From contig CAZFRC010000002.1 in assembly GCA_964521185.1 (NCBI GenBank), positions 7,779-71,778 of the forward strand: DNA of 64,000 bases, written 5' to 3'. Below the pieces are notes generated by a model that ran no database searches, was not told the origin of the DNA, and worked only from the letters and a program-made list of their open reading frames with translations. Positions 9,270 through 61,195 of the stretch are shown piece after piece. Position 1 is the first letter of the stretch, and every line of letters begins with the position of its first letter. A program made the position numbers and the translations under genes. The DNA comes from an uncultured Candidatus Saccharibacteria bacterium (GTDB lineage Bacteria > Patescibacteriota > Minisyncoccia > Phycocordibacterales > UBA12088).

Positions 9270-9510
9270 GGTTTGGTATATTAACCAACATCTTTATTTC
9301 GGTATTTTTTGAAGTCGTTCATTATGCAACAAGAAAGCGCCATGCATCCATTGCTTGGCGTTACTATTATTTTCCCATACCCGCAGCTTTCTTTTTTGGA
9401 GGGGTGCGGGTATGGTTTGAATATCAGGAGGAGAAAGAACAGAATATACGTACAGAACAAGGGATCGTTTAGTAATTGCTATACCAAGAACTTTTGTTAT
9501 TGTGGATTGC

Positions 9511-10851
9511 ATGGAAATTAATTCACAATACAGACCACTTCTTTCTGAGTTTGTGGCATTTAAGACTATTTCAACGAATTCGGCATATCGGAATGATATA
9601 GAAAAGGCTGTGTCTTGGTTGGAACGAACATACACACAGCATGCGTTTGATGTTCGTGTGGTTTCAGGATATGGAAATCCTGTTGTGGTTGCGCGTTTTA
9701 TAACAAATCCTGAATTTGAAACTTGTCTCATTTATGGCCATTACGATGTACAACCCGCACAAAAAGACGGTTGGTATGGGGATCCTTTTACGGTAGTCGA
9801 GAAAGACGGGCGTCTTTTTGCGCGGGGAGTTATTGATAACAAGGGACAGGTGTTGGTACACATGGCTACCATTTTCGCTCTCATAAAAGAAAAACGTCTT
9901 CGATACAATGTGGTATTCATGATTGAGGGAGATGAGGAAACTGGATCGCCCCATCTGGAACGCTTTATCAAAGAAAATGCCGATGTGCTTCAGGCAGATT
10001 TTGCGCTGATTTCAGACGGTGAGCAAACCAATGACCTTCCCACCATCGAGCTTGGATTTCGCGGCGGGTTTAATGCCACCGTTACCATTAAAACCAGTGA
10101 CAAAGATCTACACTCCGGTCTTTTTGGTGGAGCGATACCGAATGCGGGATATGTGATGAGTACGCTTCTTTCAAAACTCCATGATGAAAATAATAGAGTG
10201 CTGATTCCCGGATTTTACGATACCGTTGATCCCGTATCAGAAACGATACAGGACGCAAATAAAAAAATCCCTTTTGATTTTGAAACATTCAAAACCATCT
10301 CAGGAACTCGAGCGCTTCTGACTCATGATGCCTATGACTTTCATACCCAAATTGGATTCATGCCAAACGTAGATATCACCGGCGTATCGGTAGGCTACAC
10401 TGGAGAAGGGTATCGTAATGCAATCCCAGGAAACGCGATGGCAAAAATCAATTTCCGATTAACGGCAACACAGGATCCGGAAACACTCGCAAAAAAGTTT
10501 GTTGAGTTCGTTCACACATCAATGCCATCTTATGCGGATGTGCAGATTGATGTTTCGTTTCCCTATCGAGGCATTGCCATTTCAACCGATAATCCGTATG
10601 TAAGGCGTGCAGAAGAATCTTTTCGAATCGCATGTCACGCAGATCCACTTCGAAAATATTGCGGCGGCGGCCTTCCTATTGTGACCCATTACAACGACCA
10701 TCTGGGTATTCCGCAAGTGTTAGCGCCCTTGGCCAACGAGGACTGCAACATGCATGGCGTGAACGAAAACTTCAGCTTAGTATCCCTTGAAAAGGCTCTC
10801 GCGTTTAGTGAACATTTTTTCTCGCGTTCGCGTGACATGCATGCTATTTGA
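9511..10851 (+). CDS. M20-family metallopeptidase, dipeptidase/ArgE/DapE-like. The ATG is at 9511; the ORF opens at a GTG at 9502.
   Basis: GHYDVQPA, GVIDNKGQ, and MIEGDEETGSPHL are M20 metal-binding motifs. Confidence 0.8.
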   Translation: MEINSQYRPLLSEFVAFKTISTNSAYRNDIEKAVSWLERTYTQHAFDVRVVSGYGNPVVVARFITNPEFETCLIYGHYDVQPAQKDGWYGDPFTVVEKDGRLFARGVIDNKGQVLVHMATIFALIKEKRLRYNVVFMIEGDEETGSPHLERFIKENADVLQADFALISDGEQTNDLPTIELGFRGGFNATVTIKTSDKDLHSGLFGGAIPNAGYVMSTLLSKLHDENNRVLIPGFYDTVDPVSETIQDANKKIPFDFETFKTISGTRALLTHDAYDFHTQIGFMPNVDITGVSVGYTGEGYRNAIPGNAMAKINFRLTATQDPETLAKKFVEFVHTSMPSYADVQIDVSFPYRGIAISTDNPYVRRAEESFRIACHADPLRKYCGGGLPIVTHYNDHLGIPQVLAPLANEDCNMHGVNENFSLVSLEKALAFSEHFFSRSRDMHAI

Positions 10852-10904: not shown

Positions 10905-13900
10905 ATGGCTACTAAAGAAAATCTTCCGGAATCAACACCAAAGTCAGAAGCGGCCGCGCGTGAAGAGCGGATATTGGCTTTCTGGAAAGAAAAAAATATT
11001 TTTCAAAAAACCCTTGAAAAACCATCTCCAAAAGGAGAATTTATATTTTACGAAGGGCCACCAACCGCTAATGGCCGTCCGGGTATTCATCACCTAGAAG
11101 CGCGTGCGTTTAAAGATGTCATTCCGCGCTACAAGACTATGAGTGGATATCATGTGCGCCGTAAGGGAGGTTGGGATACGCATGGCCTCCCGGTGGAACT
11201 TGAAGTAGAAAAGCAACTCGGCATTACTTCAAAAAAAGAGATCGAAGAGTATGGTATTGCCGCTTTTAATAAAAAATGCAAAGAAAGCGTATGGAAATAT
11301 GTGGATGAATGGAGACGGTTCACTGACCGTATGGCTTATTGGGTCGATATTGATAATGCGTATATTACCTATGATTCTCGGTACATAGAATCAGTGTGGA
11401 GTATTGTTGCCAAAATTCACAAAGACGGCCGACTTTTCAAAGATTACAAAGTGGTGCCATGGTGTCCTCGGTGCGGGACCGCACTTTCATCTCACGAGCT
11501 TGCCCAAGGATATCAAGACGACACCGATACTTCGGTGTATGTAAAATTTAGGATCAAGGACCCCAAGCTCATAGGGTTGTCTGGTGATGTGTATCTTGTT
11601 GCGTGGACTACCACCCCGTGGACGTTGCCGGGAAATGTGGCGCTTGCCGTCAGAGAAGATATAGATTATGTAGTGTGGACACAACAGTCTGCACAGGGAA
11701 AGAAAGAGGTTTGTATCGGAGCAAAAAAATTCATTGCTTCCAGAAAAAACGCTGCGGAATTCAATGTACTTCAAGAAAAAAAGGGGGAAGAACTTGTGGG
11801 TATATCCTACGAACCGCTTTTTCCGTTTATTGAGGATACTATTTCAGAAACTGAAAAACCAAATCTAGCAAACGCATATAAAGTGTATGCTGCAGATTTT
11901 GTGACAACTGAAGAAGGTACGGGAATTGTGCATACCGCGGTTATGTATGGCGCGGATGACTTTGAACTTGGAACGCGCGTACACCTCCCAAAACATCATC
12001 TCGTTACCGAGCAGGGCACGTTTATTTCCGGTACGGCCTTTCTTGAGGGAAAGTTTGTAAAAGCACCTGAGACGGAACACTCAATCATTAATGATCTTTC
12101 TTCTCGAGAACTCTTGTATGCGACTGAACCTTATACGCACAGTTATCCGCATTGTTGGCGTTGCAAGACGCCGCTTATCTATTATGCGAATGATTCGTGG
12201 TTTTTCCGAATGACAGATTTACGAGAAGCGCTTATTTCTGAAAACAATAAGATTCACTGGGAACCAGCGCATATTCGTGAAGGGCGATTCGGTGAATGGC
12301 TCTCAGGGGTTAAAGATTGGGCGATTTCAAGGAAACGTTATTGGGGAACGCCGCTCCCTGTATGGAAAAGTGATGACGGAACAGAAGCAGTGGTCGTTGA
12401 TTCGGTACACACACTAAAAGATCGCGTTAAGAAATCTGGCAACCGCTACTTTATTATGCGACATGGGCATGCTACCCATCTTGAACAGGGAATATTTTCT
12501 GCGAATATGGACATTTCATATTCGCTCACGGACAATGGGCGCACCGAAGTAAGAAGAGCGGCTGAATCACTAAAAAAGATGGGTATTACAAAGATATATT
12601 CATCACCATTTACCCGTTGCGTAGAGACGAGCGAAGAAATTGCCCATATTATTGGAATTCCCAAGGAGTCTATAGTGGTCGATTCACGTCTTGGAGAACT
12701 CGGTTTCGGTGAGTTTAGTGAACAACCCTCCGCGGAATATACCGCATGGGAGGACGCGACGCCTGACTCGTTTACTGACACCCCGAAAAACGGCGAAAGT
12801 AAAAAAGACGCCAAACGCCGTTTCGGTTCTTTTTTGTATGAAGTTGAAAATGCTCTTTCCGATCAAAACATTCTCATAGTGACTCATGCGTATGGGCACA
12901 AAGCGATGAGCATGGTTGCGGAAGGAGCGGACGATACGAGATCGAAGGCAATCGCTAGAATGAAAGGGCTTGATCCCGCGGAGATTGTCCCGCTCTCTTT
13001 TGTCCCGCTACCCCATAATGAAGATTATGAACTCGATCTTCACCGTCCGTATGTAGACGATGTAGTTTTGATCGGTGATTCCGGCAAGGAGCTTCGGCGT
13101 GTTTCGGACGTCATGGATGTATGGCTTGATTCAGGTGCTATGCCTTTTGCGCAAGACCATTACCCATTTGAAAATAAACCATGGGTTGATGGACCAGGAT
13201 ATCCGGCTGACTACATTTCCGAAGCAATTGACCAGACGCGCGGATGGTTCTATACGCTCCATGCGGTGGGCATTTTGATGAATCGCGGACGCGCGTTCAA
13301 CAACGTCATATGTTTAGGCCATCTTCTTGATGCGAAAGGTAAAAAAATGTCGAAATCAGTTGGCAACGTGGTAAACCCGTGGGACATGATTGAAAAATAC
13401 GGAATTGACGCGCTTCGTTTGTGGATGTTTTCGATCAATGCTTCCGGCGAATCAAAAAATTTCGACGAGAAAACTGTGGATGAAATAGTAAAAAAAGTAT
13501 TTAACCTACTTTTAAACAGTGTTAAATTTTATGAACTGTATACGCCGCGCAGCGTTGTCGCCATGGATCCATTTAAAAGCGCGCACGTGCTTGATCGTTG
13601 GATTATTGCGCGTCTCCACAAGCTCCTGTTGGATACTACCAAAGATTTGGATGCGTACCGTGTGCTTGAGGCGGCGCGCGCGATTCGAGAATTTGTCGCA
13701 GATTTATCACAATGGTATATTCGTCGCTCACGGGATCGATTTAAGGCCGAAGACGAACAAGCGTCATATGCGGTTGCAACAACTCGATACGTGTTTCGTA
13801 CACTTGCACAAATTATGGCCCCTATGACTCCTTTTATCGCAGAAGAGATATATCTGAAATTTAAAGAGGCGAGCGATCCGGAGAGCGTGCATCTTACGCA

Positions 13901-14420
13901 ATGGCCTCAAGTATCCTCTTATGACCATGTGTTGCTTCACGATATGCAAAATACGCGAGAGGTAGCCTCAATGGCGCTTGAAGCGCGTGCTCGTCTTGGC
14001 ATCAAAGTGCGACAACCGCTTCAGCGCATCACGCTTAAGAACGGAATGGTGGGTAGTCGGCCTGATCTCATTGCCATCATTGCGGATGAGGTTAACGTGA
14101 AAGAAGTTGTTTGTGATCCCACTCTCGAAGAAGAGGTGGTCCTCGATTCAACGATCACTCCAGAATTACTCGACGAAGGAGTGCTTCGAGATATTATTAG
14201 GGCAATTCAGCAGTCGAGAAAAAACGCAGGGCTACTGCCAGGTGTTCCAGTGAAGCTATTGATTGATTCAAACGATCATCGGATCAAAGATTTTTTTGAA
14301 CAGTATAAAGAAGAATTTGCTAAAGCAACTAGCGTTATCGAAATGGTTTTTGTTCCTGTGTCGGCAGAACCAATCGATTTTTTTGGCACACCGCTTCGGT
14401 TGGAAATAGTGAGCCAATAA
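10905..14420 (+). CDS. ileS: Isoleucyl-tRNA synthetase, type 2 (archaeal/eukaryote-like), carrying a ~200-aa in-frame histidine-phosphatase (PGAM-like) domain insertion.
   Basis: PPTANGRPGIHH (HIGH), KMSKS, WAISRKRYWGTPLPVW, DLHRPYVDD, and DVWLDSGAMPFAQDHYPFENK. The insert FIMRHGHATH...SSPFTRCVETSE...LGELGFGEF...ILIVTHAYGHKAM lies between PVW and DLHRPY. Confidence 0.9.
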   Translation: MATKENLPESTPKSEAAAREERILAFWKEKNIFQKTLEKPSPKGEFIFYEGPPTANGRPGIHHLEARAFKDVIPRYKTMSGYHVRRKGGWDTHGLPVELEVEKQLGITSKKEIEEYGIAAFNKKCKESVWKYVDEWRRFTDRMAYWVDIDNAYITYDSRYIESVWSIVAKIHKDGRLFKDYKVVPWCPRCGTALSSHELAQGYQDDTDTSVYVKFRIKDPKLIGLSGDVYLVAWTTTPWTLPGNVALAVREDIDYVVWTQQSAQGKKEVCIGAKKFIASRKNAAEFNVLQEKKGEELVGISYEPLFPFIEDTISETEKPNLANAYKVYAADFVTTEEGTGIVHTAVMYGADDFELGTRVHLPKHHLVTEQGTFISGTAFLEGKFVKAPETEHSIINDLSSRELLYATEPYTHSYPHCWRCKTPLIYYANDSWFFRMTDLREALISENNKIHWEPAHIREGRFGEWLSGVKDWAISRKRYWGTPLPVWKSDDGTEAVVVDSVHTLKDRVKKSGNRYFIMRHGHATHLEQGIFSANMDISYSLTDNGRTEVRRAAESLKKMGITKIYSSPFTRCVETSEEIAHIIGIPKESIVVDSRLGELGFGEFSEQPSAEYTAWEDATPDSFTDTPKNGESKKDAKRRFGSFLYEVENALSDQNILIVTHAYGHKAMSMVAEGADDTRSKAIARMKGLDPAEIVPLSFVPLPHNEDYELDLHRPYVDDVVLIGDSGKELRRVSDVMDVWLDSGAMPFAQDHYPFENKPWVDGPGYPADYISEAIDQTRGWFYTLHAVGILMNRGRAFNNVICLGHLLDAKGKKMSKSVGNVVNPWDMIEKYGIDALRLWMFSINASGESKNFDEKTVDEIVKKVFNLLLNSVKFYELYTPRSVVAMDPFKSAHVLDRWIIARLHKLLLDTTKDLDAYRVLEAARAIREFVADLSQWYIRRSRDRFKAEDEQASYAVATTRYVFRTLAQIMAPMTPFIAEEIYLKFKEASDPESVHLTQWPQVSSYDHVLLHDMQNTREVASMALEARARLGIKVRQPLQRITLKNGMVGSRPDLIAIIADEVNVKEVVCDPTLEEEVVLDSTITPELLDEGVLRDIIRAIQQSRKNAGLLPGVPVKLLIDSNDHRIKDFFEQYKEEFAKATSVIEMVFVPVSAEPIDFFGTPLRLEIVSQ

Positions 14421-15061: not shown

Positions 15062-16975
15062 ATGACATACGAGAGCAAGCATGATTCAATTGAAAAAGTA
15101 AAATCGAGACTATATTCGAGAACACCGCCGCCAGATATGCATACCATGCGGCACGCGCTTCATGATATACCTCACGAAGTTCGGGAGTCTTGGCAGGAGG
15201 ATTCTGATGGGCCGCACCATATATTAGTACCCTATACGAAACGTTCAAATTTCCTTCCAACCCTCTTTACGATCTCCGTATTCTTTTTTTTACTCGCAAC
15301 CACAATCTCCATTTTTCTTATTTTAGGAGGGCGAAATTTGGTTTCATCTGAAAATATCGATATCACGATACTTGGTCCTGTGGCGCTTGCTGGCGGGGAA
15401 GAGCTTGAACTTCAGCTGTCAGTGGTTAATCGAAATGCGGTGCCTATTCAGACTACTGATTTGATTGTCGAATATCCCTCAGGTACGCGTTCGGCGAACA
15501 ATGTGGCAGTCGAACTTCCTCGACATCGAGAGTCGCTTGGCGTTATTGCACCAGGCGAAGAGGTGCGGCGCACTGTTCGCGCAGTGTTGTTTGGAGACGA
15601 GGGAGAAACGCAAAACATCCCTGTTACGGTTGAGTACCGCGTAGAAGGATCAAACGCTATTTTTTATACCGAAACCGTTCATAATGTGGTCCTCTCTTCG
15701 TCTCCTCTTGCGGTATCCGTCGAAGGGCTTGAAGAGGTTACCTCTGGGCAGGAGGTAGAGTTTACCGTTACGGTTCGATCGAATTCAGAATCTCGCATTG
15801 ACGACGTACTCATGGTCGCCACATATCCATTTGGATTTTCTATAAAAGACACATCTCCGCGATCAGCATATGACAATTCAGTTTTTGCACTTGGTTCATT
15901 TGAGACGGGAGACACAAAAACAGTTGTCATCCGAGGTACTGTTGTCGGCGTGGAAAGCGATGAGCGTGTTTTTCGGTTTGAAACAGGTACCAGAAATCCC
16001 GAAAATGATCGAACACTCGCTGCAGTTTTTGGTAAAGACGAAATAGTGGTTGATGTGCGTCGTGCGTTTATTACTATCCTGCCAACCATAAATGGTAACG
16101 TGAATTCCACGGTATCGGTCTCTCCTGGCCAAGACGTTACTTTCTCTCTCCAATGGGAGAATACGCTCGCAGTCCCCATATTTGACGCGGAAATTTCTGT
16201 AGCTATTGAGGGGTCATTTGATGAACGCACGGTTAAAGGGGAAGGGTACTACGATTCAATAACGAACACTATACGTTTTACTAGGGACACTGTTCCCGCG
16301 CTTTCAAATATTGAACCCGGCGCAACCGGTTCGGTGTCATTCAAGGTATCGCCGCTTCCTCAGATTACTGGCGAGGCGGGGAGAAATCCGACGATCACTT
16401 TTACCTCTGATGTAAAAGGCAGGAGACTGAACGAGAGTCGTGTGCCAGAAATTCTGGAAACAACCCTGACTCGTATGGCACAAATTACCTCCGCGGTTAC
16501 ATTTGAGGGAGAAACGCGATATGAGGGTGGAACCATTAACAATTTCGGACCATTTCCTCCTCGTGCTGAGCAAGAGACTGCGTACAGCATAGTATGGCGT
16601 CTCACAAACATGGTCAATGACGTAGGAAATATCAAAGTAACCGCAACGCTTCCTTCGTATGTAAAATGGATGGATGTCACTAGTCCGCCAGGCGCAGAGA
16701 TTTCATACAATCCAGAGCTCCGTCTTGTTACTTGGTATGTTGCCAATCTCCCCGCCCGAGCAAGTGGGGGGAGCGGAATTGTCGAGACTGAGTTTCAGAT
16801 CGCAATAACTCCAAGCTTGAGTCAAATAGGCACTAAACCTATACTCCTTTTGTCACCAAAAATGGTAGGTACGGATCGTTTTACGAAGGTGCAGCTGTCG
16901 GGTAGTATTGAAAACCAAACCACAGAAGTATGGGATCCAAATGCTCCAAAAGATCATGAGAAGGTGTGGCCGTAA
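15062..16975 (+). CDS. Hypothetical membrane-anchored surface protein of 637 aa with beta-rich repeated extracellular domains.
   Basis: A cytoplasmic N-terminus, then one TM helix (LFTISVFFFLLATTISIFLILGG), followed by Thr/Val/Ser-rich beta-strand domains. Confidence 0.55.
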   Translation: MTYESKHDSIEKVKSRLYSRTPPPDMHTMRHALHDIPHEVRESWQEDSDGPHHILVPYTKRSNFLPTLFTISVFFFLLATTISIFLILGGRNLVSSENIDITILGPVALAGGEELELQLSVVNRNAVPIQTTDLIVEYPSGTRSANNVAVELPRHRESLGVIAPGEEVRRTVRAVLFGDEGETQNIPVTVEYRVEGSNAIFYTETVHNVVLSSSPLAVSVEGLEEVTSGQEVEFTVTVRSNSESRIDDVLMVATYPFGFSIKDTSPRSAYDNSVFALGSFETGDTKTVVIRGTVVGVESDERVFRFETGTRNPENDRTLAAVFGKDEIVVDVRRAFITILPTINGNVNSTVSVSPGQDVTFSLQWENTLAVPIFDAEISVAIEGSFDERTVKGEGYYDSITNTIRFTRDTVPALSNIEPGATGSVSFKVSPLPQITGEAGRNPTITFTSDVKGRRLNESRVPEILETTLTRMAQITSAVTFEGETRYEGGTINNFGPFPPRAEQETAYSIVWRLTNMVNDVGNIKVTATLPSYVKWMDVTSPPGAEISYNPELRLVTWYVANLPARASGGSGIVETEFQIAITPSLSQIGTKPILLLSPKMVGTDRFTKVQLSGSIENQTTEVWDPNAPKDHEKVWP

Positions 16976-16980
16976 TACCT

Positions 16981-18351
16981 ATGGATACTCACGTTAATCT
17001 GGAAACATTGTCTGCGCTCGCTAAACGGCGTGGCTTTGTCTATCCGGGTTCTGAAATATACGGAGGTTTCCCTGGGACGTACGATTATGGTCCGTATGGA
17101 ACATTGCTCGCAACCAACATACGCAACGCTTGGTTTAAGGCGATGGTACAAATGGAGGATAATGTAGTGGGTCTCGATTCGGCCATCTTTACTCATCCAA
17201 AAGTATGGGAGGCTTCGGGCCATGTGGGAGGATTTTCAGATCCGCTTGTTGAGTGTAAATCATGCCATACTCGTTCACGCGCAGACCATCTTCTCGAGGC
17301 GGTAGGGGCGTTCGCAGATGAGAAAATGTCAATTGAAGACATTAATGATGTGTTTGATACCCATCGCGCTACAATCAAATGCCCCATGTGTGGCAAAAAG
17401 GAATTTACGGAAGTAAAACGTTTTAACCTTCTCGTGCAGTCCAATCTCGGAAATTTTACCGACGACTGGACGAAATCCCCAACCTATTTGCGAGGCGAGA
17501 CATGCCAAGGAATTTACATTAACTTTAAGAATGTGATCGATACGGCACGGGTAAAGGTGCCGTTTGGTATTGCGCAAATCGGTAAAGCGTTTCGAAATGA
17601 AATTGCGCCACGACAGTATATTTTCCGAAAGCGTGAATTTGAACAAATGGAAATGCAAATGTTTGTGCGTCCTGAAGATGAAATGACAGTCTATGACGTG
17701 TGGAGAAAAAAACGCTGGCAATATTATCTTGATCTCGGATTTAAGGAAGAACATCTCGCTTGGCATCAGCATGAGAACTTAGTCTTTTACGCAAAGGCCG
17801 CGTGGGATATCGAATACCAGTTTCCTTTCGGATTTAAAGAGCTTGAAGGTATCCATGCGCGTGGCAATTACGACCTCTCTCAGCATCAAACCTTTTCAGG
17901 CGCGGATCTTTCGTATACCGATCCAACCACACACGAAAAATACATCCCCCATATAGTTGAAACGTCGGTTGGGGTTGACCGGACATTTCTTGCGGTAATG
18001 ACGGAATTTTATGATGAAGATGAATTGGGAGGAGAAAAACGCACCGTGATGCGATTTCCGAAACTGCTTGCGCCCATTAAGGCTGCAGTATTTCCACTTC
18101 TGAAAAACAAGCCGGAATTAGTAACAAAAGCCCAAGACGTGCATGCCAAGCTTCGGAAAGAAATGCAAACTGAGTTTGACGATAATGGCAATATTGGCAA
18201 AAGGTATCGTCGTCAGGATGAAATCGGCACCCCCTATTGCGTTACCATTGATTTTCAAACACTCGAAGATGATACAGTCACTGTGCGGGAGAGGGATAGC
18301 GGAGAACAAGAGAGAGTCGCCGTAGACAGTCTAATCTCTGCTCTGCTTTAG
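16981..18351 (+). CDS. glyS: Glycyl-tRNA synthetase, alpha2 (eukaryote/archaeal-like) type. The ATG is at 16981.
   Basis: LAKRRGFVYPGSEIYGGFPGTYDYGPYG, plus class II motifs. Confidence 0.9.
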   Translation: MDTHVNLETLSALAKRRGFVYPGSEIYGGFPGTYDYGPYGTLLATNIRNAWFKAMVQMEDNVVGLDSAIFTHPKVWEASGHVGGFSDPLVECKSCHTRSRADHLLEAVGAFADEKMSIEDINDVFDTHRATIKCPMCGKKEFTEVKRFNLLVQSNLGNFTDDWTKSPTYLRGETCQGIYINFKNVIDTARVKVPFGIAQIGKAFRNEIAPRQYIFRKREFEQMEMQMFVRPEDEMTVYDVWRKKRWQYYLDLGFKEEHLAWHQHENLVFYAKAAWDIEYQFPFGFKELEGIHARGNYDLSQHQTFSGADLSYTDPTTHEKYIPHIVETSVGVDRTFLAVMTEFYDEDELGGEKRTVMRFPKLLAPIKAAVFPLLKNKPELVTKAQDVHAKLRKEMQTEFDDNGNIGKRYRRQDEIGTPYCVTIDFQTLEDDTVTVRERDSGEQERVAVDSLISALL

Positions 18352-19537: not shown

Positions 19538-20977
19538 ATGGATCGAATGTCAAAACGACTATTCCTCACTACCACGTTGCCGTATGTGAACGCCGATCCT
19601 CATATCGGGTTTGCTCTTGAGATAATTCACGCTGATGCTTACGCGCGATTCCACCGCCTCCTTGGGCACGATGTTTTTTTTAATACCGGTACTGACGAGC
19701 ATGGGCAAAAAATATTTGAGGCCGCTCATAAAAAAGGGGAAAATGTGCAAGCATACGTCAATCACTATGCGTCTGAATTCCAAAAACTTAAAGACATTCT
19801 AGATCTTTCAAACGACACTTTCATACGTACCACAGATCCTCATCATAAAGAGGCTGCTGCAGAGATGTGGAGGCGTTGCGATGCGTCTGGTGATATTTAT
19901 AAAAAAGCGTACGAAGGACTCTACTGTGTCGGATGTGAGCGATTCTTGACTGACAAAGATATTGAAAATGAAATGTGTGTCATCCATCTGAAACCGCCGA
20001 CACTTCTTCGTGAAGAAAATTACTTTTTTCGATTTTCTCGATATCAAGAAAAACTATTAAAGTATCTTTCAGGATCGGAGGTGATAATCCCTGAATGGCG
20101 ACGCGAGGAGGCGATAGCATTTGTGGAAGCAGGGCTTGAAGATTTCAGTATTTCGCGCGAAAAAAAGCGTCTTTCGTGGGGTATACCAGTGCCGGGCGAT
20201 GATACTCAGGTGATGTATGTGTGGTTTGACGCACTCACGAATTATATTTCAACCCTTGGATGGCCAGGAGATCAGGAAGGAAATTTCAAAACATATTGGG
20301 AGGAAGGTAAGGCAATACAGTTTGCCGGCAAGGATCAGGTGCGATTTCAGTCGCTCATGTGGCAGGCAATGCTCATGTCTGCGGGAGTTAAAAATACCGA
20401 CGTGATATTTTACCATGGATTCATCATTACGGGGGGGCAGAAAATGTCCAAGTCTTTGGGAAATGTTATTAGTCCGCTCGACATTGTGAATGAGTACGGT
20501 ACTGATGCGCTCCGCTACTATCTTTTGCGTCATGTGCATCCAGTCGACGATTCCGACGTGACTCTTCAAAAAATTAAAGAAATCTATAATGCTAATCTTG
20601 CAAACGGGCTCGGGAATCTTGCGGCTCGCATAATGAAACTCTCCGAAATCCATCTGACCACGTCGGTTTCCATACCGGAATCAAAAGTATTTCCGACCGA
20701 ATACGCTGAAGCACTGGATCGATTCGAATTTCATCACGCGGTCAATTATGTGTGGAATCGAATTCAGGCGCTTGATCAGCGTATTACAACCGAGGAACCG
20801 TTCCGTTTGATCCAAACAGATGTAGAGAAGGGAAAGAAAGTCATACAGAGTCTGGTGATTGAGCTCGGTTCCATTGCCCATCTTCTTCAGCCGTTAATGC
20901 CAGCGACCTCAAAGAAGCTCACCGATGCTATTCTTTCCAACAAAAAACCAGAGTCGTTATTTCCTCGGAAAGATTAA
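19538..20977 (+). CDS. metG: Methionyl-tRNA synthetase, short form without the C-terminal domain.
   Basis: TTTLPYVNADPHIGFALE (HIGH-like) and KMSKSLGNVISP. Confidence 0.92.
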   Translation: MDRMSKRLFLTTTLPYVNADPHIGFALEIIHADAYARFHRLLGHDVFFNTGTDEHGQKIFEAAHKKGENVQAYVNHYASEFQKLKDILDLSNDTFIRTTDPHHKEAAAEMWRRCDASGDIYKKAYEGLYCVGCERFLTDKDIENEMCVIHLKPPTLLREENYFFRFSRYQEKLLKYLSGSEVIIPEWRREEAIAFVEAGLEDFSISREKKRLSWGIPVPGDDTQVMYVWFDALTNYISTLGWPGDQEGNFKTYWEEGKAIQFAGKDQVRFQSLMWQAMLMSAGVKNTDVIFYHGFIITGGQKMSKSLGNVISPLDIVNEYGTDALRYYLLRHVHPVDDSDVTLQKIKEIYNANLANGLGNLAARIMKLSEIHLTTSVSIPESKVFPTEYAEALDRFEFHHAVNYVWNRIQALDQRITTEEPFRLIQTDVEKGKKVIQSLVIELGSIAHLLQPLMPATSKKLTDAILSNKKPESLFPRKD

Positions 20978-59786: not shown

Positions 59787-59860
59787 GCGAGTATAGCTCA
59801 GATGGTTAGAGCGCGTCACTGATAATGACGAGGTCCCAGGTTCGAATCCTGGTACTCGCA
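59787..59860 (+). tRNA. tRNA-Ile, anticodon GAT, with no encoded CCA.
   Basis: Cloverleaf: the GCGAGTA/TACTCGC acceptor, a CTGATAA anticodon loop, and GGTTCGAATCC T-arm. Confidence 0.85.
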
Positions 59861-59907
59861 CAGAAATTCGACCGCGAGAAAATCCCTTTATTTTAGCCAG
59901 TCAAAAT

Positions 59908-60994: not shown

Positions 60995-61076
60995 GGGCGC
61001 GTGGCGGAACTGGTATACGCGTACGTCTCAGAAGCGTATGTCGAAAGACTTGGGAGTTCAAATCTCCCCACGCCCA
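60995..61076 (+). tRNA. tRNA-Leu, anticodon CAG, with a long variable arm. There is one C-A mismatch in the acceptor stem.
   Basis: Anticodon loop CTCAGAA, variable arm TGTCGAAAGACTTG, and T-arm GGGAGTTCAAATCTCCC. Confidence 0.6.
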
Positions 61077-61195
61077 CACAGTCTTGGTAGTAAGTGGCCT
61101 CCATGCGTATTGCTTATCCATATCAAAAAACATTAGGTAGTGCGCCACGAACCTACTTCCTTGAAGGAAACAGGTTCGTGGCGCATGATAAATAA

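Follow-up and report, generated by a model that had tools for sequence, protein, structure and literature searches.

Aminoacyl-tRNA synthetases are among the best-studied enzymes, and the usual view is that those of bacteria acquire no modules other than tRNA-binding or editing ones. Class Ia synthetases carry several nested insertions (the CP1 editing domain, CP2, CP3 and the LeuRS-specific domain), and the CP3 site is known to vary structurally between isoleucyl-tRNA synthetase (IleRS) enzymes (PMC7191050). Here we describe a different kind of insertion in the IleRS encoded on a 64,000-nucleotide stretch (hereafter the window) of contig CAZFRC010000002.1 (assembly GCA_964521185.1), from an uncultured Candidatus Saccharibacteria bacterium. 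A complete, conserved and well-folded histidine phosphatase of small-molecule type is nested in CP3 of this otherwise complete synthetase. In other genomes its counterpart is a separate gene, placed immediately 5' of ileS and coupled with it in translation; the nested domain is the fused form of that gene. As in the classical class Ia insertions, a whole domain sits in a surface loop with its termini adjacent. However, the classical insertions are ancient and serve aminoacylation or editing, whereas the window insert is a predicted phosphoryl-transfer enzyme gained within one bacterial radiation and is still a separate gene in sister lineages.

Both partners have well-described relatives. For the phosphatase, these are the small-molecule branch-1 enzymes PspA (4IJ5), PhoE (1H2E), CobC alpha-ribazole phosphatase (6E4B) and glucosyl-3-phosphoglycerate phosphatase (6S2Q), which are only 18-24% identical to it; they are free-standing metabolic proteins, whereas members of the window phosphatase family lie within a tRNA synthetase or share an operon with one. 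The best sequence and fold match of the synthetase is the type-2 G/AXHH IleRS (Deinococcus IleRS2; GVHH mutants of Priestia megaterium IleRS2, 8C8W; PMC10485003), with which it shares a GIHH-type motif, KMSKS, an editing domain and a type-2 C-terminal domain. Solved or described type-2 enzymes have no catalytic domain in CP3, whereas the window CP3 is longer by about 195 residues and has lost its zinc ligands. Fusion of His_Phos_1 to a nucleotide- or RNA-processing enzyme is known from mycobacterial MutT1 (Nudix plus histidine phosphatase, 9CXX) and from the Rv2228c-type RNase H/acid phosphatase (NF005567; window protein 64.6 against a cutoff of 326), but in both models the phosphatase is C-terminal, not nested in the insertion region of a Rossmann fold. 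NF040702, 'ileS_w_GNAT', is a precedent for an IleRS with an added enzyme domain; the window protein stays below its cutoff (340.8 bits against 1999) and has no GNAT match in Pfam.

The earlier note, made from the letters alone, had not recognised this architecture as a described one, and full-text literature searches likewise yielded no description of a histidine phosphatase in or beside IleRS or ValRS, nor is the insert mentioned in a 2026 preprint on how IleRS domains evolved. Public records name these proteins 'class I tRNA ligase family protein', 'isoleucine--tRNA ligase' or 'hypothetical protein', with PF00300 precomputed. Conservation was assessed in the 120 best database matches of the window IleRS (52-57% identical), to which the homologue counts refer. 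The gene, the nested domain and its junctions are as follows.

10905-14420, + strand: ileS, type-2 isoleucyl-tRNA synthetase of 1171 residues with nested phosphatase, a single uninterrupted open reading frame (ORF)
12318-12440, + strand: WAISRKRYWGTPLPVW motif and N-terminal CP3 arm, residues 472-512, zinc-knuckle Cys absent
12441-13004, + strand: nested histidine phosphatase domain (His_Phos_1, branch 1), residues 513-700
12459-12467, + strand: R519-H520-G521, RHG motif with the predicted nucleophilic His; R and H in 120/120 homologues, G in 117/120
12615-12617, + strand: R571, second phosphate-binding Arg, within SSPFTRC (from residue 566); 120/120
12696-12698, + strand: E598, predicted general acid, within LGELGFGEF (from residue 596); 117/120
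12885-12887, + strand: H661, distal catalytic His, within IVTHAYGH (from residue 658); 120/120
12999-13019, + strand: exit junction F-V-P-L-P-H-N, residues 699-705, back into CP3; conserved and modelled with high confidence
13026-13136, + strand: C-terminal CP3 arm (YELDLHRPYVDD, from residue 708) and DVWLDSG, residues 708-744

The earlier note had read this region as an in-frame, intact branch-1 histidine phosphatase within the catalytic body of a type-2 IleRS, and profiles, motifs and structural alignment all bear this out. Pfam PF00300 (His_Phos_1) matches residues 516-679 of the whole protein (E=4.8e-27, 95.3 bits), flanked on both sides by the class-I catalytic profile, and also matches the segment 12420-13030 translated alone (E=2.3e-28, 99.6 bits), against a gathering cutoff of 21.7 bits. 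The 1171-residue protein scores 879.7 bits with NCBIfam TIGR00392 (ileS), above the cutoff of 621.4. The full branch-1 catalytic set that the note had listed (R519, H520, G521, R571, E598 and H661) is present, and the motifs stand where it had placed them, at residues 472 (WAISRKRYWGTPLPVW), 519-521 (RHG), 708 (YELDLHRPYVDD), 738 (DVWLDSG) and 814 (KMSKS). A 122-residue ORF on the opposite strand (12446-12814, - strand) lies wholly within the phosphatase-coding segment; it is most likely spurious, because the sense frame is strongly conserved.

Alignment to Thermus thermophilus IleRS (1ILE) pairs query residues 19-510 with residues 13-482 and query residues 709-1033 with residues 487-821, a net insertion of about 195 residues where the Thermus enzyme has about 4; the previous estimate of about 230 residues against about 25, counted between outer landmarks, is close to this. 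The insertion point lies between the WxISRxRxWG and DxWxDSG motifs. By the definition given for Candida and Thermus IleRS (PMC7191050) this region is the CP3 subdomain, and the insert sits at its tip. At the entry junction N513 is invariant, the exit junction is strongly conserved (F699 in 109/120, P703 in 118/120, H704 in 110/120 and N705 in 108/120), and D711, H713, P715, D718, D738 and W740 beyond it are invariant. In Thermus, CP3 is a zinc knuckle with the ligands CQAC and CAC; the window protein has KSDDG and IGDSG at these places in the alignment, and its CP3 arms (12366-12440 and 13026-13115) contain no cysteine, the zinc ligands having been lost. Four Cys in the CP3 stretch are kept by many other Parcubacteria IleRS, both those with an embedded phosphatase and those with a free one. 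GC content across the insert (0.44-0.49) is in line with the rest of ileS.

An assembly or gene-calling artefact that merged two genes might be suspected from the metagenome-type assembly and from the phosphatase being a separate, adjacent gene in sister genomes. However, IleRS sequence lies on both flanks in one frame, the identical protein occurs in two database sources, and hundreds of independent assemblies, some of them complete genomes such as AP024682.1, have the same architecture, so that the chance of such an artefact is negligible. Chimeric assembly, which the first reading had named as a possible refutation, is effectively refuted by the single-frame flanks together with these independently assembled orthologues.

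PF00300 lies within IleRS in all 120 homologues, at an identical position and with 200-215 residues between fixed flanks; their records are named Vogel-, Zambryski-, Nomura-, Wolfe- and Campbellbacteria, Paceibacterota and Parcubacteria. An exhaustive search that used the insert alone gave 4200 relatives, of which 252 had E<=1e-10. In the 150 best (representatives of 50%-identity clusters), about 90 (at least 88) are embedded in IleRS at the same site; free-standing proteins of about 190-210 residues account for many of the rest. Judged from these records, the insert is widespread in an entire bacterial class. Orthologues could have revealed a common, already annotated IleRS linker, as the earlier note had allowed; the insert is indeed common throughout the clade, but it is a genuine enzyme domain and no annotated linker.

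Mean pairwise identity is 39% in the phosphatase domain, compared with 68-74% in the catalytic body. The RHG motif, the second Arg and the distal His are retained in all architectures examined, and the position of E598 is Glu, or Asp in a few free-standing copies. Because a fast-evolving scaffold keeps a frozen active site, the domain is better seen as a working enzyme than as a spacer. Were it instead a pseudoenzyme or structural module (a bulky stand-in for the missing CP3 zinc knuckle, or an added surface for binding tRNA) with its catalysis irrelevant, the loss of the zinc ligands in the window CP3 would find an explanation, as would residue 526 (12480-12482), which is Leu in the window copy and Asn in 103/120 homologues and nearly all other copies. 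An Asn at this position normally helps bind phosphate. We give this idea very little credence: the R, H, R, E, H set is invariant or nearly so, both among the 120 homologues and in each of the other architectures, within a domain whose overall conservation is only 39%, and the four CP3 Cys are still present in many embedded homologues.

AlphaFold2, run with 119 homologues, modelled the full protein with a mean predicted local distance difference test score (pLDDT) of 92.2 and a predicted template modelling score (pTM) of 0.86; the insert reaches 90-97, and the excised domain was also modelled confidently by itself. The modelled domain has the alpha/beta fold of the superfamily. Fold comparison gave values of 23.2 for PspA, 22.5 for glucosyl-3-phosphoglycerate phosphatase, 21.5 for both a riboflavin-pathway phosphatase and PhoE, and 20.6 for CobC; the protein phosphatases SixA, tau55, Sts-2 and PGAM5 gave 17.2, 15.4, 15.0 and 14.9. 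In its predicted structure the nested domain is thus nearer to small-molecule phosphatases (PspA, PhoE, CobC) than to protein phosphatases, and the comparison favours a small-molecule or nucleotide substrate over regulatory protein dephosphorylation.

No specific phosphatase family can be named, because the nested domain reaches no NCBIfam equivalog cutoff: it scores 76-79 bits against 225 (NF038349) and 21 against 81.7 (TIGR01258) with the models of cofactor-dependent phosphoglycerate mutase (dPGM), 70.6-74.9 against 162.9 with CobC (TIGR03162), 47.7-50.4 against 350 with PspA (NF045917) and 33-38 against 74.5 with SixA (TIGR00249). A glycolytic dPGM acquired by fusion was considered and rejected as the principal interpretation on the grounds of these dPGM scores, of an 'ExxxGxxxG' cap pattern that is phosphatase-type, and of a cofactor-independent phosphoglycerate mutase (iPGM) encoded in one sister genome that has the free-standing phosphatase. 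Since that genome encodes iPGM, the domain is not needed there as a glycolytic mutase.

The synthetase that houses the domain retains the parts expected of a type-2 IleRS:

11082-11093, + strand: G-I-H-H, residues 60-63, class-I signature motif in the non-canonical G/AXHH variant, read from the sequence
11502-12164, + strand: CP1 editing domain, about residues 200-420, apparently intact, matching the isolated editing-domain structures 1WK8 and 1UE0
13344-13358, + strand: KMSKS loop, residues 814-818; K814, M815, S816 and K817 invariant
13593-14357, + strand: anticodon-binding and type-2 C-terminal domains (Pfam Anticodon_1, residues 897-1040; DUF5915, residues 1078-1151)

Foldseek and sequence alignment both identify type-2 Priestia megaterium IleRS (8C8W) and T. 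thermophilus IleRS (1ILE) as the closest solved relatives (Foldseek template modelling score of 0.94 on the target). The editing domain appears intact from its sequence, with W234, T235-T237, G338, G340, H343 and D352 invariant in the clade, including the TTTPWT, GTGxVH and D352 positions. The signature motif is not the HIGH reported by the earlier note, nor any form of the canonical HxGH; GIHH belongs to the documented type-2 G/AXHH subclass, and its presence does not exclude the window protein from IleRS. This motif type of type-2 IleRS has been tied to mupirocin hyper-resistance (PMC10485003). Because G/AXHH occurs in 117/120 homologues, the whole clade may be intrinsically insensitive to mupirocin. 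The window protein stays below the cutoff of 1900 bits of the MupA and MupB resistance models (NF000257, 721.5 bits; NF000258, 722.3 bits).

The origin of the insert can be traced in related genomes. A scan of GTDB species genomes yielded 80 loci, all but one titled as Patescibacteria or Parcubacteria-type. In 28 of them smpB and argS precede an ileS with the nested phosphatase, with no free copy in the locus, and in 38 they precede a free phosphatase gene and then, on the same strand, an insert-less ileS (about 925-980 residues). A free phosphatase stands with a convergent ileS in one further locus and with no ileS in the remaining 13, of which 4 end at a contig edge and 7 lie in unrelated contexts (MazG, nucleases, M23 peptidase). 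At the syntenic locus the embedded and free states are mutually exclusive. The free gene (about 190 residues) lies directly after argS and directly upstream of ileS, mostly with a gap below 45 bp, and its stop codon overlaps the ileS ATG as ATGA in 12 loci. An insert-less IleRS from one free-state genome is 41% identical to the window IleRS and has a short CP3 at the insert site. The earlier statement that the phosphatase is not a neighbouring gene thus holds for the window genome but not for sister lineages, where it is immediately upstream of ileS. In the window itself neither argS nor a second phosphatase copy was found.

Several of these loci deserve separate mention. In loci L002 (2682-5609, - strand) and L077 (3975-6758, + strand) the ileS that adjoins the free phosphatase is read as two separate ORFs, which could reflect frameshift errors or genuinely split genes. 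A contig titled 'Candidatus Humimicrobiaceae' (L058, DATKUR010000003.1) has a typical Parcubacteria locus with smpB, argS and ileS carrying the phosphatase; mis-binning or mislabelling is possible. Two free paralogues lie about 10 bp upstream of a small gene for a MazG-type nucleotide pyrophosphohydrolase (L085, 4983-5949; L088, 4782-5748), a hint that this subgroup, at least, has a role connected with nucleotides. Upstream of the window ileS is an M20 peptidase gene (9502-10851), and the argS-ileS synteny of other Parcubacteria is absent here.

Neighbour-joining trees (100 bootstraps) were built from the IleRS body without the insert, with ValRS as outgroup, and separately from the phosphatase domain. 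The IleRS-body tree has well-supported pure clades of either state (among them a free clade of 17 with bootstrap 100 and an embedded clade of 13 with bootstrap 81), and these are interleaved; both states are found among Nealsonbacteria- and Colwellbacteria-labelled records. An intein-like mobile insert was considered because the states interleave on the tree at a single site. It was rejected: Pfam matched no intein, Hint or homing-endonuclease family in this IleRS, the residue that follows the conserved P-H-N is mostly Glu (the wrong +1 residue for an intein), and the insert is entirely His_Phos_1 fold.

The same phosphatase has entered synthetases at other places as well, with one to four copies at differing IleRS and ValRS sites in other lineages. 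One IleRS of 1419 residues, encoded on a 1.06-Mb contig (P0158/P0274, locus L003, 8001-12260), has a canonical HYGH motif, an intact zinc-knuckle CP3 and two phosphatase copies: the first follows the DxWFxSG motif, and the second separates the stem-contact fold from the anticodon-binding domain. Another IleRS (P0236) has one copy later in CP3 and one after DxWFxSG. A bona fide ValRS (P0276, 948 bits against a cutoff of 704) has one copy after DTWFSSG, and a ValRS fragment (P0131) has four. Every copy that is long enough to align retains the R-H...R...E...H set, and the insertions elsewhere in IleRS (P0158, P0236) and in ValRS (P0276, P0131) are independent.

Two embedded homologues are more elaborate. 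An IleRS of 1340 residues from a Nomurabacteria record (P0058) has, besides the CP3 phosphatase, a C-terminal HD-type phosphohydrolase domain of about 200 residues; its assignment as a SpoT/SAH-like hydrolase was not upheld, the only match being a generic, sub-threshold one to HDIG. An IleRS-like ORF of 1066 residues (P0182) has an IS200-type Y1 transposase domain within CP1, the CP3 phosphatase and a C-terminal GNAT domain, and may be a real mosaic or a gene-calling artefact.

On balance, we lean towards a nested domain that is a competent small-molecule-type phosphatase, is the fused form of an ileS partner gene, and partners IleRS on a small phosphomonoester. We infer phosphatase activity, cooperation with IleRS and the substrate class alike. 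The two enzymes probably work together, because sister species carry the phosphatase gene just upstream of the synthetase gene. On this reading, the separate upstream gene of an argS-phosphatase-ileS cluster would have become a rigidly joined internal domain in the window lineage. The IleRS part would carry out the usual charging of tRNA-Ile, and the tethered phosphatase would hydrolyse a small phosphomonoester connected with aminoacylation, with H520 as the predicted nucleophile, R519, R571 and H661 binding phosphate and E598 as the general acid. Our best guess for the substrate would be a nucleotide-type product or by-product (AMP, ADP or a dinucleoside-polyphosphate derivative), because of the Nudix-histidine phosphatase 9CXX and of the MazG or NUDIX genes that adjoin some free paralogues; a phosphorylated tRNA 3' end would be the second choice.

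Several points weigh against such a partnership. The Leu at position 526 departs from the phosphate-binding Asn, and the window phosphatase may accordingly have lower activity or altered specificity. The failure to reach any equivalog cutoff and the occurrence of free-standing paralogues in unrelated gene contexts count in the same direction, as do the trees, in which deep nodes are weak and the domain phylogeny is unresolved, so that the number and direction of state changes are not fixed by them. In addition, fusion alone is weak evidence of shared function, because the fusions of TsaC (Sua5/YrdC, the t6A enzyme) in these bacteria are promiscuous. In Patescibacteria TsaC (proteins P0285-P0401), fusions to an MGMT DNA-repair domain are very common, and its other partners include TruB, a 2H cyclic phosphodiesterase (CPDase), methylpurine glycosylase, GNAT and NUDIX. 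The present phosphatase is among them in only 4 clusters; given so few clusters and so many unrelated partners, the TsaC-phosphatase fusion was downgraded as a sign of a link to adenylate-forming enzymes.

These observations bear on a serious rival, in which a housekeeping phosphatase with no functional link to IleRS was a neighbour that became fused in a fusion-prone lineage, the only gain being co-expression or genome compaction. The many unrelated partners of TsaC agree with it, as do the free paralogues beside nucleases, M23 peptidase and MazG, the faster evolution of the phosphatase domain than of the synthetase core, and closest structural relatives that are metabolic phosphatases. We consider it unlikely, though well worth keeping in view. 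With the free gene just 5' of ileS a terminal fusion would be expected, yet no N-terminal fusion was seen; insertions are internal, at four or more points of the catalytic body of both IleRS and ValRS and in up to four copies; N513 and P703-H704-N705 at the junction are strongly conserved and confidently modelled; and the two states are strictly exclusive at the locus. Because the states are exclusive, N-terminal fusions are unseen, at least four internal sites in two synthetases are used and the junction is conserved and rigid, a functional partnership is the best-supported interpretation.

The positions of the insertions also bear on another proposal, namely a repair or counter-toxin phosphatase that would remove phosphate or pyrophosphate from the tRNA 3'-CCA end, or phosphate from the synthetase itself (KMSKS loop), and so make aminoacylation possible again once toxin kinases or pyrophosphokinases have acted. 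Every insertion site falls within or next to the second half of the Rossmann fold, around DxWxDSG and KMSKS, and one homologue (P0058) adds the HD phosphohydrolase domain. Toxins of the toxSAS/CapRel type add pyrophosphate to the CCA end of tRNA, and class-I synthetases are phosphorylated close to KMSKS by HipA/HipT kinases. However, the fold with its full cap region is nearer to small-molecule phosphatases than to SixA, PGAM5 and Sts, the conserved locus showed neither a toxin nor a kinase gene, the HD domain is generic and below threshold, and we know of no member of the histidine phosphatase superfamily that acts on RNA 3' ends. We therefore regard repair as improbable. It is similarly doubtful that the repeated IleRS and ValRS insertions, with up to four copies, would reflect an arms race in episymbiotic bacteria in which the domain is a counter-defence module.

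The window encodes further parts of the translation apparatus: a class-II synthetase, presumably GlyRS (16966-18351; tRNA-synt_2b and HGTP_anticodon), a short MetRS of 479 residues (19538-20977), and the genes for tRNA-Ile(GAU) (59787-59861) and tRNA-Leu(CAG) (60995-61077).

In this study, two known enzyme families are found nested one within the other, an arrangement that is undescribed, extends through a whole clade and has an evolutionary origin that can be traced. In much of the Parcubacteria (candidate phyla radiation, CPR), a predicted second, unrelated catalytic centre lies within the Rossmann-fold body of IleRS, and the locus offers a clear natural example of an operon partner turned nested domain. 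Because the free and fused forms are both available, the proposed partnership is directly testable by biochemistry. The architecture hints strongly that these minimal-genome bacteria require, or gain from, a dedicated phosphatase activity in aminoacylation, one with no textbook counterpart. Should the substrate prove to be a nucleotide by-product, a tRNA with a modified end or the synthetase, the translation apparatus would have a new accessory activity.

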